A program made the translations under genes and the position numbers. A stretch of DNA of 64,000 nt from Thermoanaerobaculia bacterium. Its GTDB lineage: Bacteria > Acidobacteriota > Thermoanaerobaculia > Multivoradales > Multivoraceae. Of this stretch, positions 3,296-7,427 are shown in pieces. Under the pieces are notes generated by a model. The model ran no database searches. It saw only the letters and a list, made by a program, of their open reading frames with translations, and had not been told where the DNA came from. The stretch's first letter is position 1, and each line of letters begins with the position of its first letter. The DNA lies in the NCBI GenBank assembly GCA_963666565.1, contig OY762911.1, forward strand, positions 800,001-864,000, written 5' to 3'.

Positions 3296-3333
3296 CGGAG
3301 GCGGCGCAGCGTAGCACGCGGGCGCCTCTTCCG

Positions 3334-3363
3334 TTGACGGGATCCATCGGTCCCTGCTAGAAC
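3334..3363 (+). promoter_or_regulatory. Putative sigma70 promoter of tRNA-Phe
   Basis: TTGACG-N18-TAGAAC with an extended TG, about 28 nt upstream of the tRNA. Confidence 0.5.
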
Positions 3364-3390
3364 TCCCTTCCCTCAGCCGCGTGCCGGAAC

Positions 3391-3466
3391 GCCCAGGTAG
3401 CTCAGTTGGTAGAGCACCTGACTGAAAATCAGGGTGTCGGTGGTTCGAATCCGCCCCTGGGCACCA
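3391..3466 (+). tRNA. tRNA-Phe (GAA)
   Basis: GCCCAGG/CCTGGGC acceptor stem, anticodon arm CCTGA-CTGAAAA-TCAGG, GGTTCGAATCC T-arm, encoded CCA. Confidence 0.98.
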
Positions 3467-3544
3467 TCCGCGCAGGTTCCTTGCCGCCTGCGGCGGCAGC
3501 GGGTCAGAAGACCCGCGCATGTATGGTCCGCCCCGCTTGTGCAA

Positions 3545-3816
3545 GGGCACTTTCCGGAGTTCCGGCGAGAGAGGTGTCGTTGCTTGCATGTATTCGGCCT
3601 GTTGTTGGGCGTCTCGTGGTTTCGAGCTCCCTGGCCCCGATGGAATACGCGCGCGTCGTCTCTTCTGTACACCCAGACGGCCTGTTGAATGGCCCTGCGC
3701 GGGTTCAGGCTCTCGACGCGCCGGTCCGACCTGTTTCGCCATCGCTCCGTTGTGTCCTCGCAACGACTTGGTGGGGCAATCCTCCTTGGTTGATTCGATG
3801 TGGATCGAGCCGCCTG
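3545..3816 (-). ncRNA. Predicted bridge/seek RNA of the IS1111-type element (ends approximate)
   Basis: On the minus strand: ACCCGCGCA (3704-3696) and CTGGGTG (3676-3670) flank a GGCC/GGCC stem and match the target halves; ATTCCAT (3646-3640) and ATACAT (3593-3588) flank a second GGCC/GGCC stem and match the donor junction. Confidence 0.8.
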
Positions 3817-4875
3817 CTACGCGGCCCGAGAGACCTTCTGCCGAGACCCGGCGAGGCGGTCGTCGCGGTACAGCTCGCCGCGGCGAAGCACCGCCCAGGC
3901 GATGCGGCCCAGCTTGTTGGCCAGTGCCACCGTGGCGACGTTCGGCCCCCGGCGCCGCTTGACGTCGAGCGCCCAGCCCTTCAGCCGCGTTCGCTCGCCC
4001 TTCGCCGCCGTGCGCAGGACCGCCCGCGCACCGTGGATCAGGAGCGAGCGCAGGTAACGGTCGCCGCGCTTGCTGATCCCGCGCAGCACCGTGCGACCCC
4101 CGGTCGAGTCCTGACGCGGCACCAAGCCCATCCAGGCCGACATCTGACGACCGCTGCTGAAAGCCCAGCCGTTGCCCACCGCCGCCACGATCGCCGTCGC
4201 CACGATCGGACCGATGCCCGGAATCGACATCAGACGCTGGCAGTGAGGGTTCTCCTTCGACTCCCGCACCAGCATCGCGGTCAGGTCCTCGACCTCCTTG
4301 TGGACCTGCATCAGAGCCTCGTACTGCATCCACAGCAGCGCGCGAAACTGACCCGGCAGCTCGCGCTCCGCGTCGCTCGCGATGTCGGGCACCGCCCGCA
4401 TGACCACCGCCCGGCCCTGACGCAGCACGATCCCGTACTCGCCCAGGAATCCCCGCAACTGGTTCACCAACTGCGTGCGACGGCGAAGCGCCGCCTCCCG
4501 GCTCCGATGAACCTGCTGAAGAGCACGCTGCTCCTTCGTCTTGTACGGCACGAAACGCATCGTCGGACGGGACACCGCCTCGCAGATCGCCTCCGCGTCG
4601 TGGTAGTCGCTCTTGTTCGACTTCACGTAAGGCCGCACGAACTGAGGACTCATCATCCGCGCGTCGTGACCCAGAGCGCTCAGCTTCTCCACCCAGTAGT
4701 GCGCGCCGCAGCTCGCCTCCATGCCCACCAGGCACGGCTCGAGCTGCACCATCAACTCCATCAGCCCCGACGCCTTCACCTGACGCTGAAACACCACCGC
4801 GCCCGACGAGTCCATCGCGCACACCTGGAACAGGCGCTTGCCCAGATCGATACCGACTCGAGTAACCTTCTTCAT
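3817..4875 (-). CDS. IS110-family transposase/recombinase
   Basis: RuvC-like DEDD residues GIDLGK, MEASCG, KSDYHDAEAI; C-terminal SIPGIG, GLVPRQDSTGG (catalytic Ser), ISKRGDRYLR, VALANK; GGAGG RBS. Confidence 0.97.
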   Translation of the reverse strand: MKKVTRVGIDLGKRLFQVCAMDSSGAVVFQRQVKASGLMELMVQLEPCLVGMEASCGAHYWVEKLSALGHDARMMSPQFVRPYVKSNKSDYHDAEAICEAVSRPTMRFVPYKTKEQRALQQVHRSREAALRRRTQLVNQLRGFLGEYGIVLRQGRAVVMRAVPDIASDAERELPGQFRALLWMQYEALMQVHKEVEDLTAMLVRESKENPHCQRLMSIPGIGPIVATAIVAAVGNGWAFSSGRQMSAWMGLVPRQDSTGGRTVLRGISKRGDRYLRSLLIHGARAVLRTAAKGERTRLKGWALDVKRRRGPNVATVALANKLGRIAWAVLRRGELYRDDRLAGSRQKVSRAA

Positions 4876-4959
4876 GGTCCGTCTCCTCCCTTGTTGGTTG
4901 GGAAAAACCCATTCTGGCCCTACAAGAGGCCGTAGAGGGCGGGGCGGACCATCCCATTA

Positions 4960-5124
4960 CCCAGTGCGGCGGCAGCGGGTCAGAAGACCCGCGCACCCAG
5001 TGCGACGGCAGCGGGTCAGAAGACCCGCGCACCCAGTGCGACGGATGCGGGCCAGAGGACCCCGCGCACCCAGGAGCGGGTCAGATGCGCACCCAGGAGC
5101 GGGTCGGGAGACCCGCGTACCCAG
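4960..5124. repeat. Tandem cluster of REP-like units, degenerating rightwards
   Basis: Two near-identical 36-nt units (GCAGCGGGTCAGAAGACCCGCGCACCCAGTGCGACG-like) followed by three degenerate units. Confidence 0.9.
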
Positions 5125-5275
5125 CCCGCTGCCCGGGGGCCGCCGGGAATCCGCAACATTTCCGCAGCAGCTTCCGAACTCCCCGGAACCGTGCCGAACG
5201 GCGGCAAGTAACGGCAAGCACGACAGTTAGCGCCGATCGGGCCCGACCGCTCCGCAACCGGCGGGATCTCTCGTC

Positions 5276-5305
5276 TTGACACGGCCTTCACGCGGCCTGT
5301 ACGTT
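5276..5305 (+). promoter_or_regulatory. Putative sigma70 promoter for the large ncRNA candidate
   Basis: TTGACA-N18-TACGTT; the expected +1 near 5312-5313 coincides with the 5' strand of the terminal helix. Confidence 0.7.
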
Positions 5306-5312
5306 GTCTCGC

Positions 5313-6086
5313 GGATAGGGACTGTGACCAAGAATCGCATCCTGATCCACCGGTCCTGAGACGCGACCTTCGGACCGGAGCCCGAGAGGGGCGAAGTCAC
5401 GTTCGCGTGGTGGGCGCCCATCGACGGCGAAGGAAGGAAGGTCATGACTCGGAAGCCGGGCTCGGCGGCAGGAGCCGCCGGAAGCCGGAGACGCTGAGGC
5501 GCAAGCCGAAGAGAAACCGGATTCCAGCACGCTCCAGCCATCGAGTGGCTCCCGTGGCCGACAGCCTTCCCGGGAGCGGCGCCGAAGGGCGAAAGCCTGA
5601 CGGAGGCGCGACGGGGGAGGCGGCTTCAGGGAAACGGACGGCTGGAAGTTGCCCGGCAGCAAACGGAAGGCCGACTGCAGAACTGGAGCGCTTCGTCGGC
5701 GGACCCTACGGGGGCTTCGTCGTGAGACCCGACCAGTCGAGCGACGGAGTGCCCCGCAGGCGTCAGGCTGGCAGAAGCCAGGCTTCGGCGAGTCCCCGCG
5801 GCGGCGAGCCGCAGGGCGGCAGGCTCGGAGGCGCAAGCCGACGAGAAAGTCGTCCGACGGCAAAGGCGCGGCGGGCCGTTTTCGGCCGTCCCAGCCGAAA
5901 GGGCCGACCGTCTGAACGCAAGTTCGGCCGGAGAGCCCGGAAGGGGAAGGACGGGCGGAAGGGGATTCCGGCGGTGGTGCTCGCGCCCATGACCCAAGCC
6001 CGCCAAGCTGTAGAGGTCCAATCTGGTGCGAACGGGATGAGAGGCTGAGGTCGATTCGGGCGAAACTCCCGGAGCGGTCCCTATCC
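5313..6086 (+). ncRNA. Candidate large (~775 nt) highly structured non-coding RNA, family unassigned
   Basis: 5'/3' helix GGATAGGGACTG/CGGTCCCTATCC; nested helices 5401-5407/6027-6033 and 5410-5417/5983-5990; many GNRA/UNCG-capped hairpins; no ORF with a recognisable product. Confidence 0.75.
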
Positions 6087-6095
6087 TCTTTTTTT
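6075..6095 (+). terminator. U-tract directly after the terminal helix of the ncRNA candidate
   Basis: CCCTATCC-TCTTTTTTT; a T-run this long is exceptional in this GC-rich window. Confidence 0.6.
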
Positions 6096-6443
6096 GCCTG
6101 CACGGAACCTAGCACGACGCGACCGTAAGTGCAACCCCATCAGCAACTTGCAGGGGTCCCGCCCAGTACCTCGGCGACTGGCGGCCAGCGACGATCCGCC
6201 GCCGGCCGGCCAGCCGGGCTCGCCGCCGCTCCGACCCGGCGGCCTCCGTCCGCGGGTCCGCCGGCATCGCTGGAACGGAACGCTGTCACGAAACGGTCAG
6301 GCTATCGTCACGCACCGTGCAGAACTCTCCGTGCCAGTCTTCCCCTCCGCTCTCGAAGTCCCGGCGTCCGGCACCCAGGCGACGGCGACCGGACTTCCGG
6401 CACACGGAAAACCGGCCCCACGTAGCAGTCGAGATGCCAGCCA

Positions 6444-7427
6444 ATGCAGCGCGATAACGACGCGCCGTCGGACGCGGCGCCCCCGTCCGAAAGGGATCGC
6501 GACGCCAACGGCGAACCGCTGGGCCGCCTGCGTTTCGGCGAGTTCGAGTTCGACCCCGAGACTCTCGAACTGCGCGGCGACGCGAAGACCGTTCGGCTCC
6601 AGCCCCAGCCGGCCAGATTGCTTCTCCTTCTGATCGCCAACAAGGGGACGGTCGTCTCGCGCGACACCGTTCGCCGCCACCTCTGGCAGGACGAGATCCA
6701 CGTCGAGTTCGACCAGAGCATGAACTCCTGCGTCAAGCGCATTCGCGTCGCGCTCGGAGACAGCGCGGAAGCGCCGCTCTACATCGAGACCCTGCCGAGA
6801 CTCGGCTACCGGTTCCTCCAGCCCGTGACCGAGGTTCGTGACGACAGCCCGTTGCCCTCGGTCGAGCCGGCGCTACCCCGGTACTGGCCGCGCTCGCGAC
6901 GGGCGCCGTCCCTGCCCCTCGCCGCGGTGAGCGTGGCCATCGGGATCGTGTTGACGGTCCTGGTCTGGAACCTGCTCAACACGCGGTCCGGCGGCGCCGA
7001 CCAGCCGCCGCGCCAGGTGCTGGCGGTCCTGCCCTTCGCCGCCCTCGAGCACTGGCCCGGGGCGGAGTCCTTCCGTCAGGCGCTGGCCCAGGAGCTCATC
7101 ACCTCGCTCGCCCGGGAAGGCTCGCGAAGCGTCGCGGTCGTGGCCAGGGACGCAGCTCCCGAGCCGGAGACCAGCCCGCCGCCGCACCGCGTTCACGCCG
7201 ACTTCGTCCTCGACGGCCGCGTCCAGCACGAACAGGGTCGGCTCCGCGTCTGGGCGCACCTCCTGCTCGCGAAGGACGGAACGGTGCTGTGGACCGAGGC
7301 CTTCGACGGCGTGGAGGCCGAGATCCTCCTGTTCCAGGCCGAAGTGAGCGCCCGGATCGGCAACGCGGTCCTCGGCCGGCTGGAGCAACTCGCCGGTCAG
7401 GAGATCTCCCTGCAGCGCAGGGGCTGA
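6444..7427 (+). CDS. CadC/ToxR-like membrane-anchored regulator (OmpR-type wHTH, TM helix, TolB-N-like domain)
   Basis: LRFGEFEFD...LQPQPARLL...IETLPRLGYRF wHTH; hydrophobic TM segment; LAVLPF motif. Confidence 0.85.
   Translation: MQRDNDAPSDAAPPSERDRDANGEPLGRLRFGEFEFDPETLELRGDAKTVRLQPQPARLLLLLIANKGTVVSRDTVRRHLWQDEIHVEFDQSMNSCVKRIRVALGDSAEAPLYIETLPRLGYRFLQPVTEVRDDSPLPSVEPALPRYWPRSRRAPSLPLAAVSVAIGIVLTVLVWNLLNTRSGGADQPPRQVLAVLPFAALEHWPGAESFRQALAQELITSLAREGSRSVAVVARDAAPEPETSPPPHRVHADFVLDGRVQHEQGRLRVWAHLLLAKDGTVLWTEAFDGVEAEILLFQAEVSARIGNAVLGRLEQLAGQEISLQRRG

Follow-up and report, generated by a model that had tools for sequence, protein, structure and literature searches.

To our knowledge, elaborate conserved folds are very rare among bacterial RNAs longer than 500 nt, and each of those that have been studied (RNase P, group I and group II introns, OLE, GOLLD and ROOL) revealed unexpected chemistry or architecture. 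The hosts of ROOL are mostly Firmicutes.

In the portions of PMC12286853 that deal with these RNAs, OLE is described as about 600 nt long, with long co-axial helices and forming a dimer, and GOLLD as longer than 800 nt, with a conserved and a less conserved part. According to the same portions, ROOL and GOLLD are "often near tRNA islands", and ROOL can equal 16S rRNA in abundance, is non-essential in one strain and has no known protein partner (PMC12286853). The hosts of OLE are Gram-positive bacteria that are extremophilic or anaerobic, and dedicated Oap proteins are its working partners, as stated in parts of PMC9723947 and PMC12286853. All three RNAs self-assemble through A-minor contacts and kissing loops, and it is left open there how common cages or oligomers are among the large RNAs found in nature (PMC12286853).

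Here we analysed a locus of an acidobacterial genome, contained in a stretch of 64,000 nt that we call the window. Positions 5312-6095 of its plus strand represent a stand-alone gene, whose product is a large structured RNA. Counted from its predicted start through a terminal U-tract, it measures about 783 nt.

Comparison with described RNA families

We compared the RNA with all the 4227 families of Rfam 15, and none matched it at the gathering score. Precisely, cmscan gave nothing relevant at E <= 10 on positions 5100-6300, nor at E <= 1 on four homolog loci. We considered as chance matches the rows for MIR169_3, RF_site1, Atu_Ti1, raiA-hairpin and ctRNA_pGA1, which scored 15-21 bits, and Plastid-ycf2, which was antisense to the tRNA.

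The first-pass annotation had proposed either a divergent member of the GOLLD, ROOL or OLE classes or a large ncRNA of a new class. The former proposal did not hold, since there was no Rfam match and the three models found nothing genome-wide at E <= 1. GOLLD (RF02032) had no genome match at this threshold and no cmscan row in either positions 5100-6300 or the four homolog loci. For ROOL (RF03087) the lack of a genome match at E <= 1 is weak alone, the control being positive in 0/14 genomes, and there was no cmscan row; for OLE (RF01071), whose control was positive nowhere, there was likewise neither a genome match at E <= 1 nor a cmscan row. The second proposal is supported, the RNA being conserved, non-coding, backed by covariation and present in RNA libraries. 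It also has the characters by which we define the large ornate ncRNAs of bacteria (a descriptive grouping that implies no homology), as it is longer than 500 nt, non-coding and built of multiple stems supported by covariation. No published description of this RNA was found in the literature, and candidate-RNA lists in supplements could contain it. That the locus is a true ncRNA gene, and that its family is undescribed, we regard as very probable.

The absence of hallmarks of RNase P, tmRNA or introns, already remarked upon, was borne out by cmscan, in which no such family had a row. The RNase P RNA of this genome (RF00010) is at C1:3265025-3265416, with 215 bits, and has no row for this region; the tmRNA (RF00023) is at C1:920861-921207 and a canonical 6S RNA (RF00013) at C1:625720-625906, all three above their Rfam cut-offs. 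A group II intron was also discarded: cmscan gave no intron family, RF01998 (group-II-D1D4-1) had no genome match and the ORFs of the region were without Pfam match.

ROOL resembles this RNA in being large, multi-armed, adjacent to a tRNA and dispensable; here there are many contigs in RNA libraries, which are no measure of level. ROOL is, however, borne by phages and prophages, whereas the present locus is syntenic and chromosomal, in Acidobacteriota, and without phage match; moreover, ROOL has been shown to assemble itself into a cage, which for our RNA would be a conjecture. GOLLD has a similar length, a position near tRNA and a conserved part beside a less conserved one, just as our RNA has an invariant core with variable modules, but it is phage-borne and varies in its 5′ region, whereas here the variable modules are internal, the ends invariant and the flanks syntenic and housekeeping, with no matches in viral contigs or phage records. 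OLE is likewise chromosomal and highly structured, and it is abundant; unlike OLE, our RNA has no partner gene of the Oap kind beside it in the Pfam scan of its neighbours. RNase P RNA, 6S RNA and tmRNA, which are stable and abundant, also share an own promoter and paired 5′ and 3′ ends, but they gave no match here, and the RNA is not universal even in its own genus.

Genomic context

The features surrounding the RNA in the window are the following.

3391-3466, plus strand: tRNA-Phe (GAA), from ARAGORN, with an Rfam tRNA score of 74.4 bits; context, outside the RNA
3817-4875, minus strand: IS110-family transposase (PF01548 and PF02371, Pfam)
4959-5124: tandem array of 36-nt units
6444-7427, plus strand: Trans_reg_C (CadC-like) gene, from Pfam, in the same orientation as the RNA

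ARAGORN, run on positions 3300-6300, returned tRNA-Phe only. In the relatives the distance between tRNA-Phe and the 5′ end of the RNA is 222-258 nt (four loci measured), with the two in the same orientation, and the gene order tRNA-Phe, RNA, Trans_reg_C gene, aat, ychF is conserved. The end of the U-tract is 349 nt from the start codon of the Trans_reg_C gene. Pfam identified among the neighbours a LolA-like protein, the IS110 transposase, Trans_reg_C, the Leu/Phe-tRNA protein transferase and YchF. Among these scanned neighbours there was no candidate partner gene linked to the RNA; they are housekeeping genes, retained where the RNA is absent. The genome has one copy of the RNA.

What had been labelled a REP cluster is actually the 36-nt tandem array at 4959-5124. 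Together with the IS110-family element it forms an insertion at 3474-5146 that is present in this genome only, the relatives' loci being without the insertion and keeping the RNA. Judging from the compared loci, the array and the transposase are a recent insertion and not the normal neighbourhood of the RNA.

Coding potential

Two long ORFs overlap the RNA.

5288-6115, minus strand: ORF of 275 codons, no Pfam match, not conserved
5407-6048, plus strand: ORF of 213 codons, no Pfam match, not conserved

The earlier statement that the interval from the repeat array to the Trans_reg_C gene contains no recognisable coding gene agrees with these properties. In the homologs the frames are broken or shifted, and the longest open ones (105-287 codons) differ in strand, frame and length. 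The fractions of variable sites in the three codon phases were 0.446, 0.457 and 0.480, that is, without 3-base periodicity. The large gaps of the alignment span 83, 84, 93, 173 and 174 columns and are mostly not multiples of three. Long open frames do exist in this genome, which speaks for a protein-coding gene on either strand, but they are expected at 68% G+C. We give such a gene a practically negligible probability: the region is non-coding and the ORFs of 275 and 213 codons are spurious.

Promoter, closing helix and 3′ end

The ends of the gene are marked by the following elements.

5276-5281, plus strand: -35 box TTGACA, from the sequence
5300-5305, plus strand: -10-like box TACGTT, 18 nt after the -35 box, matching the consensus at 3/6 positions
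5313-5325, plus strand: 5′ strand of P1, the helix closing both ends; 13 pairs, 100% of cells paired
6074-6086, plus strand: 3′ strand of P1, directly before the U-tract
6087-6095, plus strand: U-tract, presumed 3′ end; TC then seven T, T-rich in 32/32 homologs

TTGACA is kept in 48 of the 49 complete loci listed, the exception being L019 (duplicate L024), which reads TTGAC-T, and the sequence upstream of it diverges among the homologs. TACGTT is found in 29 of the 32 distinct homologs and is off by one or two bases in L018, L040 and L048. The promoter described in the first-pass annotation is therefore in place as to its two boxes and its 18-nt spacer, but the promoter scan, which requires at least 4/6 consensus positions in the -10 box, called no promoter on a box with 3/6. 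Transcription would start at 5312-5313, from a putative sigma-70-type promoter with a weak -10 box; GGATAGGGACTG begins at 5313.

The pairing of GGATAGGGACTG with 6075-6086, proposed on the basis of this one sequence, is a standard pair in 32/32 homologs at all 12 positions. Ten pairs of P1 are invariant and three change on one side only; the first 21 nt at the 5′ end and the core of the 3′ strand of P1 (GTCCCTATC) are invariant among the 32 homologs. The T tract said to follow the closing helix is there as well (TC plus seven T, 6087-6095). The consensus scan called no plus-strand terminator hairpin before the U-tract, so that P1 is the only helix adjoining it. The sole terminator-like site of the scan was on the minus strand, at 5528-5516, and was not above shuffles (mean 1.0). 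Both promoter and terminator are non-canonical. P1 may serve as the terminator stem and would seal both ends against exonucleases; it would be unusual for a terminator stem to enclose about 750 nt, hence the 3′ end could instead arise by processing.

Overall fold and covariation

The folding energy of the RNA was -421.2 kcal/mol, in comparison with -368.0 +/- 7.8 for shuffled sequences (z = -6.8), and 0/20 shuffles were as good, which answers positively the question, raised beforehand, of whether the fold beats shuffles. For the minus strand z was -4.2. The plus strand is favoured by the 887 G-U cells versus 231 A-C cells, and the GNRA and UUCG loops read correctly on this strand only.

The consensus structure was based on alignment A1, which contains the 32 homologs. 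It consists of 280 pairs in 37 helices, and 93.3% of the cells are paired, versus 33-45% with the partners slid. Changes on both sides were observed in 35 pairs and 123 cells, as against 23.6 +/- 2.6 pairs and 61.1 +/- 9.4 cells in shuffles; 0/500 shuffles reached the observed values, and the slid controls gave 10-17 pairs. Many of these changes track the split of the homologs into two clades and thus represent few independent events. Within a single clade, two-sided changes were observed in 27 pairs. About 110 of the 280 pairs never vary.

As to the single helices of the first-pass annotation, GCTTCGTCGT/GCGACGGAGT pairs in 32/32 homologs, and CCGGTCC/GGACCGG, GTGAC/GTCAC and GTTCGCG/TGCGAAC are compatible with 29-32 of the 32, in competition with a local 5′ arm. 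In fact, GTGAC/GTCAC, CCGGTCC/GGACCGG and the long-range GTTCGCG/TGCGAAC and GCTTCGTCGT/GCGACGGAGT all compete with an alternative long 5′ arm, and the choice is undecidable because the sequence is invariant. Two other helices did not survive the comparison: CGCTCCAG (5530-5537) with CTGGAGCG (5683-5690) is confined to this genome, two of its positions pairing in just 1/32 and 5/32 homologs, and the conserved partner of 5683-5689 is 5623-5629; GTGGGCGC/GCGCCCAT, as placed there, has three positions that pair in just 9-17 of the 32. As to the hairpin caps, the consensus has GCAA three times, GAAA once and UUCG once.

Some rival pairings are not separable, namely Arm I as a local hairpin or in long-range pairing to the 3′ domain, GTGAC/GTCAC or P2, and columns 57-63 with 121-127 or with 810-815. 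We also looked for pseudoknots, as covarying stacked pairs outside the model; the candidates were mostly G/A-rich runs against the U-tract or alternatives following the clade split, and none was convincing.

Domains and size classes

The layout of the RNA comprises the trunk P1-P3, the long 5′ arm, one arm with a GCAA tip, a central domain of three arms and the 3′ arm. All the elements below are on the plus strand.

5326-5343, plus strand: 5′ strand of P2, an interrupted trunk helix with partner 6034-6052; 14 pairs, 95.7% paired
5354-5453, plus strand: Arm I, a long irregular hairpin with a 6-bp tip stem and a UUCG loop at 5402-5405
5455-5460, plus strand: helix closing the inner super-domain, partner 5967-5972; 6 pairs, 99.5% paired
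5461-5545, plus strand: Arm II hairpin, whose GGC-GCAA-GCC tip (loop 5501-5504) has purine-rich internal loops on its flanks; helices 9-12, two-sided changes in 9 pairs
5547-5794, plus strand: central domain with three arms, helices 13-20
5564-5621, plus strand: central arm 1, GAAA tip at 5591-5594
5623-5689, plus strand: central arm 2, invariant loop CCGGCA at 5653-5658
5690-5778, plus strand: central arm 3, loop CCGACCA at 5729-5735
5795-5966, plus strand: variable module A, two arms with GCAA tips at 5833-5836 and 5918-5921; helices 21-30, with alignment gaps
5980-6033, plus strand: 3′ arm, helices 35-36, 87% and 98% paired; two-sided changes in 3 pairs, register only partly settled
6055-6073, plus strand: last hairpin, 6-bp stem and 7-nt loop; 100% paired, 2 pairs vary on one side

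P2 is nearly invariant, with one pair changed on both sides, so covariation is no test of it, and the rival GTGAC/GTCAC is equally invariant. Arm I was predicted in each of the long, middle and short size groups when these were folded separately, and its pair 73/119 is divided between CG (17 sequences) and UA (14 sequences); in the competing model parts of it pair with the 3′ domain, and the alternative register, with columns 57-63 against 121-127, seems better than the model at pair 60/124. One invariant 7-nt loop of the RNA ends in ACCA.

The homologs are 618-867 nt long, in classes of 618, 696, 698, 783 and 862 nt. This variation is confined to one inner region, just 3′ of the central domain, with both ends of the RNA invariant, and consists in the gain or loss of whole GCAA-tipped hairpin modules. 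Module A is absent in the 618-621-nt and 696-nt forms, and only its first half is present in the 698-nt form. The helix 5455-5460/5967-5972 is kept in every size class, although 172 nt of the sequence between its strands can be present or absent. The first tip of module A repeats that of Arm II, as 5463-5516 resembles 5799-5848, and the GGC-GNRA-GCC tip motif has two copies in the shortest forms, four in the RNA of the window and six in the longest forms.

Distribution of the RNA

The 32 distinct homologs belong to one genus only, of marine Acidobacteriota (records named Ca. Multivorans or Thermoanaerobaculia), and fall into two clades that are about 78% identical. The RNA was present in 19/24 and 17/21 sampled genomes of the genus. 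R1, a covariance model built on the central domain from near-identical sequences (effective number 1.1), scored 237-273 bits within the genus and had no match in 129 other genomes of the class, nor in 150 other genomes of the phylum; being of low diversity, it would miss distant relatives, so that confinement to a single genus may be an overstatement. BLAST found no relative in 16 genomes from other families of the order. On five genomes of the genus that were negative by BLAST, R1 gave weak matches, the best of which (E = 2e-4, 25.7 bits) was inside an apparent coding region and was taken as chance.

In three species (G012, G002 and G021) the RNA is cleanly absent between tRNA-Phe and the Trans_reg_C gene, that is, missing at the same locus, and on this comparison of loci we consider it dispensable within the genus. 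An exact 28-nt pattern of the central domain was found in 3 metagenome contigs and in 0 viral contigs, and blastn in distant mode gave no match to a phage or plasmid record.

Presence in RNA libraries

Contigs on the RNA body (5313-6090) were found in 4/4 metatranscriptome runs, from 4 studies of sponge and other environmental RNA libraries, with 3910, 6, 14 and 79 records. One X11 contig starts at 5313, and in X5 and X6 there are contigs that skip module A wholly or partly, matching the forms of relatives. The word depth reached 1.2 million, a value that is summed over thousands of variant contigs and is no measure of expression. We compared the stretch 4900-6500 in the same way: the bins 5062-5277 and 6142-6411 were without cover in all the four runs, which for contigs is no evidence of absence, and in run X1 the bin 6088-6141 had a value of 35 versus 261,944 in the preceding one. 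This pattern of cover in the flanks is compatible with the predicted ends. With regard to the discrete 5313-6090 transcript that had been anticipated, the RNA body is thus represented in every run, but strand, ends and level are not readable from assembled contigs.

Proposed role and alternative explanations

Taking all the results together, we consider as the best explanation, and as a fairly probable one, that the locus produces an independently transcribed, stable and abundant RNA of about 783 nt, of no described family, which acts in trans as a scaffold. The mechanism itself, scaffolding by assembly, is proposed tentatively and by analogy. The four to seven GNRA tetraloops and the purine-rich internal loops would dock into helices by A-minor contacts, giving a compact body, and this body may work in trans as a structural scaffold, either as a particle of self-associating RNA, like those shown for ROOL, GOLLD and OLE, or as the RNA component at the core of a ribonucleoprotein. 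That the RNA builds an ordered quaternary assembly of RNA only, we consider rather unlikely; it would be the first whose gene has a stable place on the chromosome of a lineage that is Gram-negative and rich in symbionts (Acidobacteriota), and not in phages or Firmicutes; the sole hint of a homo-oligomeric assembly is the self-complementary CCGG contained in the invariant loop CCGGCA.

One alternative reading is that of an RNA which sequesters or scaffolds proteins, as the OLE ribonucleoprotein does, or 6S and Ms1 with RNA polymerase and CsrB with CsrA. The repeated GGC-GNRA-GCC hairpins, between purine-rich internal loops, would be sites for several copies of one protein, with the number of modules tuning the capacity, and the recurrence of this tip two, four or six times speaks for it. 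Stable RNP RNAs typically have paired ends, the many contigs and the high word depth in two RNA libraries (again no measure of level) agree with it, and dispensability is common to many regulatory RNAs. CsrA prefers GGA in loops, whereas the consensus loops here are GNRA, UUCG, CCGGCA and CCGACCA, none with GGA. OLE, a comparable large RNA, uses dedicated proteins, as described in part of PMC9723947, but here there is no linked candidate partner gene, the housekeeping neighbours being kept where the RNA is absent; a canonical 6S RNA is already elsewhere in the genome, and the long-range nested architecture goes far beyond the needs of known sponge RNAs. We consider this reading unlikely, yet worth keeping in mind. 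A large ribozyme, perhaps acting on tRNA or another RNA, is suggested by the size, the invariant unpaired stretches and the GNRA-stapled multi-domain fold, which recall RNase P and group I and II introns, as well as by the conserved neighbour tRNA-Phe and the invariant 7-nt loop ending in ACCA. It appears improbable to us, as Rfam gave no match to RNase P, any intron or a self-cleaving ribozyme family, the genome has its own RNase P RNA elsewhere, and no cleaved or ligated form was seen among the contigs, whose joints only match relatives' forms without all or part of module A; a dispensable RNA of one genus only would also be unusual for a core catalytic RNA.

The remaining alternatives concern the neighbours of the RNA. 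A cis-acting leader or giant riboswitch for the Trans_reg_C gene at 6444-7427 would account for the shared orientation and for the position about 350 nt upstream of the start codon, but the U-tract ends the RNA 349 nt before that codon, the three species without the RNA keep both the regulator gene and its own upstream region, Rfam gave no match to a riboswitch family, and 783 nt with paired termini is unlike any known leader; its probability is very low. Lower still, and close to nil, is that of an RNA belonging to a mobile element, of the phage-borne type of GOLLD and ROOL or an IS110 bridge or guide RNA. The transposase just upstream (3817-4875, minus strand) speaks for it, but the RNA points away from the transposase and is about four times larger than a bridge RNA. 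The insertion at 3474-5146 with its IS110 element is absent from the relatives' loci that keep the RNA, on which ground, together with the single genome copy, the bridge RNA was rejected. The location of GOLLD and ROOL near tRNAs, mentioned in part of PMC12286853, would fit the phage-borne type, against which stand the syntenic housekeeping flanks and the lack of matches in viral contigs, phage records and plasmid records.

To return to the scaffold, the candidate differs from the earlier large RNAs in belonging to another phylum and in being chromosomally fixed, and it indicates that genomes of uncultured organisms still hold large RNA genes missed by annotation pipelines. If the RNA-only assembly were true, the invariant CCGG loop at 5653-5658 would make a kissing contact between molecules, and the gain or loss of GCAA-tipped modules between species would alter the geometry or the stoichiometry of the particle. 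In that case, the RNA being non-essential, the species that carry it and those that do not would represent a natural experiment on the role of such particles. There are sister species cleanly without the RNA at the same locus, and the natural size variants of 618, 696, 698, 783 and 862 nt are ready-made deletion constructs.

Identification of the RNA gene and its homologs

The RNA at 5312-6095 (+) is real, conserved, large and non-coding, and belongs to a family of which our literature search found no description. The 4.79-Mb genome has a single copy. BLAST recovered the RNA from 19 of 24 genomes sampled within the genus, and from none of the 16 that represented other families of the order. 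The exact 20-mer of its 5′ end occurred in 31 public genome contigs, the records of which are named Candidatus Multivorans, Thermoanaerobaculia, Acidobacteria or 'Holophagales' MAGs. After duplicate removal we considered 32 distinct full-length sequences, aligned as A1.

Features annotated around the RNA
3817-4875 (-): IS110-family transposase gene (PF01548 + PF02371)
5288-6115 (-): long ORF across the RNA, 275 codons
5407-6048 (+): long ORF across the RNA, 213 codons
6444-7427: Trans_reg_C (CadC-like) gene

The stretch encodes an RNA rather than a protein. There was no credible coding gene between the transposase gene and the Trans_reg_C gene, and neither ORF had a match in Pfam. In the homologs the longest open stretch went from 105 to 287 codons, with strand and frame changing, the variable alignment columns were even over the three phases (0.446, 0.457 and 0.480), and the large gaps of A1 were of 83, 84, 93, 173 and 174 columns. 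We consider both ORFs spurious; gene callers could easily report one or the other as a hypothetical protein, masking the RNA.

Among the genomes searched the RNA was confined to one genus. Precisely, a covariance model of the central domain (R1; 247 positions, 59 pairs) scored 237-273 bits in 17 of the 21 other genomes of the genus and had no match at E <= 0.01 in 129 genomes from 66 other genera of the class, nor any in 150 other genomes from 105 genera of the phylum, although, its effective sequence number being 1.1, it could miss distant relatives. In three RNA-less genomes of the genus (G012, G002 and G021) the interval from tRNA-Phe to Trans_reg_C was 204, 462 and 397 nt long, respectively, without trace of the RNA, which is thus dispensable. 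In G012 the sequence just downstream of the terminator was still recognisable. A short, hairpin-like stretch at 6127-6150 (GTGCAAC...CAGCAACTTGC), just downstream of the RNA, is also retained in G012, hence the presence/absence boundary falls between this stretch and the U-tract.

Proposed promoter and ends

The promoter-like boxes and complementary ends described in the first-pass annotation are where it placed them: TTGACA is at 5276-5281, followed by an 18-nt spacer and TACGTT at 5300-5305, GGATAGGGACTG begins at 5313 with its complement at 6075-6086, and the U-tract (TC and seven T) occupies 6087-6095. Of the 49 complete loci listed, 48 retained the -35 box, whereas the sequence upstream diverges; TACGTT was retained in 29 of the 32 distinct sequences. 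All 32 homologs have the same first 21 nt and the same core in the 3′ strand of the end-joining helix P1 (GTCCCTATC), and in each of them a T-rich tract comes after this strand. P1, which closes across about 750 nt, is the helix that adjoins the U-tract. We infer that the folded RNA acts as its own transcription terminator, or else that the 3′ end arises by processing.

Consensus structure and covariation

A highly structured RNA had been proposed, and the + strand did fold better than its shuffles (-421.2 kcal/mol vs -368.0 +/- 7.8 for 20 dinucleotide shuffles, z = -6.8); for the minus strand z was -4.2. With all 32 sequences, RNAalifold predicted 164 pairs, of which 13 show compensatory changes; when long, middle and short size groups were folded separately, 165 pairs were shared. 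Adding the module helices to these yielded a model with 280 pairs and 37 helices.

Elements of the consensus model (all on the + strand)
5313-5325 with 6074-6086: P1
5326-5343 with 6034-6052 and 5347-5352 with 5973-5977: interrupted trunk
5354-5453: Arm I, UUCG hairpin tip
5455-5460 with 5967-5972: closing helix
5461-5545: Arm II, GCAA tip
5547-5794: central domain, three arms tipped by GAAA, a CCGGCA loop and a CCGACCA loop
5795-5966: module A, two GCAA-tipped arms
5980-6033: 3′ arm
6055-6073: last hairpin

Pairing in A1 under the model, shuffled and slid
Cells forming standard pairs: model 93.3%; shuffled 92.2%; slid 33-45%
Pairs changed on both sides: model 35; shuffled 23.6 +/- 2.6; slid 10-17
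Cells changed on both sides: model 123; shuffled 61.1 +/- 9.4; slid 15-38

None of 500 shuffles equalled the observed value for any of the three measures. By a looser count, 27 pairs changed on both sides inside one of the two clades; since these clades are about 78% identical, a large number of pairs are invariant, and double changes often amount to a single event. G-U cells outnumbered A-C cells (887 vs 231), which fits the + strand.

As regards Arm I, the all-sequence fold favours a local hairpin (5350-5378) and long-range pairing of 5401-5417 with the 3′ domain, and the per-group folds favour the long arm; these rival pairings are inseparable on present data. A compensatory pair of columns, 73/119 (CG n=17, UA n=14), favours Arm I, inside which a register alternative was also detected. 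Two helices of the first-pass annotation were not conserved: in CGCTCCAG/CTGGAGCG two positions pair in only 1 and 5 of the 32 homologs, and GTGGGCGC/GCGCCCAT, as placed, has three positions that pair in 9-17 of the 32.

Two hairpin loops, both invariant and non-GNRA, may be sites of tertiary or intermolecular contact. CCGGCA (5653-5658) includes the self-complementary CCGG; CCGACCA (5729-5735) has GACC in common with the 5′ trunk strand (5326-5329), and the invariant GGUC at 6049-6052 could pair with either copy.

Size classes

Length classes of the 32 sequences
618-621 nt: 9 sequences
696 nt: 1 sequence
698 nt: 1 sequence
783-785 nt: 6 sequences
861-867 nt: 15 sequences

The length differences all map to a single portion of the inner fold, immediately 3′ of the central domain. 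Module A, which measures 172 nt in the window's RNA, was whole, half or missing among homologs. Module B, of about 83 nt, adds two more GCAA-tipped hairpins (A1 columns 681-763). It is missing from the window's RNA; the longest forms (e.g. L014:1171-2031, -) carry it, as does the 696-nt form (locus L020). As the latter has module B without module A, the modules are gained or lost independently, and the tip of module A, repeating that of Arm II, suggests growth by internal duplication.

Expression

A word index returned 18 RNA-library runs with parts of the stretch. Contigs of four runs, from four studies, were placed on 4900-6500 at 80% likeness, and all four had contigs in the RNA body (3910, 6, 14 and 79 records), which carry no strand, end or level information. 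One contig of a sponge-metagenome run (X11) starts at 5313. In run X5 one contig joins 5788 to 5987; a junction of 5839 with 5987, separated by 57 other letters, occurs in one contig each of X5 and X6. Such contigs represent forms without all or part of module A.

Comparison with known RNAs and possible mode of action

Against the 4227 families of Rfam 15 the RNA had no match, either in the window or at the four homolog loci scanned. The ROOL, OLE, GOLLD and group-II-D1D4-1 models had no match in the genome at E <= 1, a result that for ROOL and OLE rests mainly on cmscan, as their model controls matched no control genome. The genome's own RNase P RNA, tmRNA and 6S RNA lie elsewhere. On the strand opposite tRNA-Phe, the Rfam Plastid-ycf2 5′UTR scored 29-31 bits in L007, L014, L020 and L037 (cut-off 65.7), a chance echo of the tRNA.

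Among large ornate bacterial RNAs, a loosely defined kind, the RNA represents a new family; its closest analogues in character are ROOL, GOLLD and OLE. According to PMC12286853, these three are long and ornate, and A-minor contacts together with kissing loops hold them in homo-oligomers; GOLLD and ROOL are often encoded close to tRNAs, and ROOL is non-essential, yet can be as abundant as 16S rRNA. The findings above fit a stable, trans-acting structural RNA. The present RNA has four to seven GNRA tetraloops by form, adjoining purine-rich internal loops, sealed ends and an invariant loop with self-complementary CCGG. Because of these features and of the likeness to ROOL, GOLLD and OLE, we tentatively prefer, as the likeliest single mode of action, that it could act as a self-organising scaffold, RNA-only or ribonucleoprotein. 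Its main rival, an RNA that sequesters a protein, seems to us rather improbable, and catalysis, cis-regulation, coding and a mobile-element origin come far behind; searches of phages, plasmids and viral contigs gave no match to the RNA. The natural size variants allow direct tests of both function and higher-order structure.

Locus organization

The conserved order is LolA-like gene (-), tRNA-Phe (GAA), the RNA, Trans_reg_C gene, aat (-) and ychF (-), and in the relatives tRNA-Phe precedes the RNA by 222-258 nt, in the same orientation. In this genome only, an IS110-family insertion sequence (3470-4966) lies between the two. In relatives window 3473 is followed by 5147 within about 50 nt, so the element and the adjoining tandem array are an insertion specific to this genome. 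As for the 'REP cluster' of the first-pass annotation, repeats are indeed present; they are, however, a tandem array (4959-5124; 3.2 copies of a 36-nt GC-rich unit, then 2.5 looser 23-nt copies) missing from the relatives' locus. The IS110 element has an 85% identical copy elsewhere in locus L035. Its ends (3470-3519 and 4965-5003) both resemble one short repeat found at other sites in relatives (L034, L041), which suggests that REP-like repeats flank the element or were its insertion site. Single copies of a unit related to that of the 36-nt array occur near 920-962 and in other loci of relatives.
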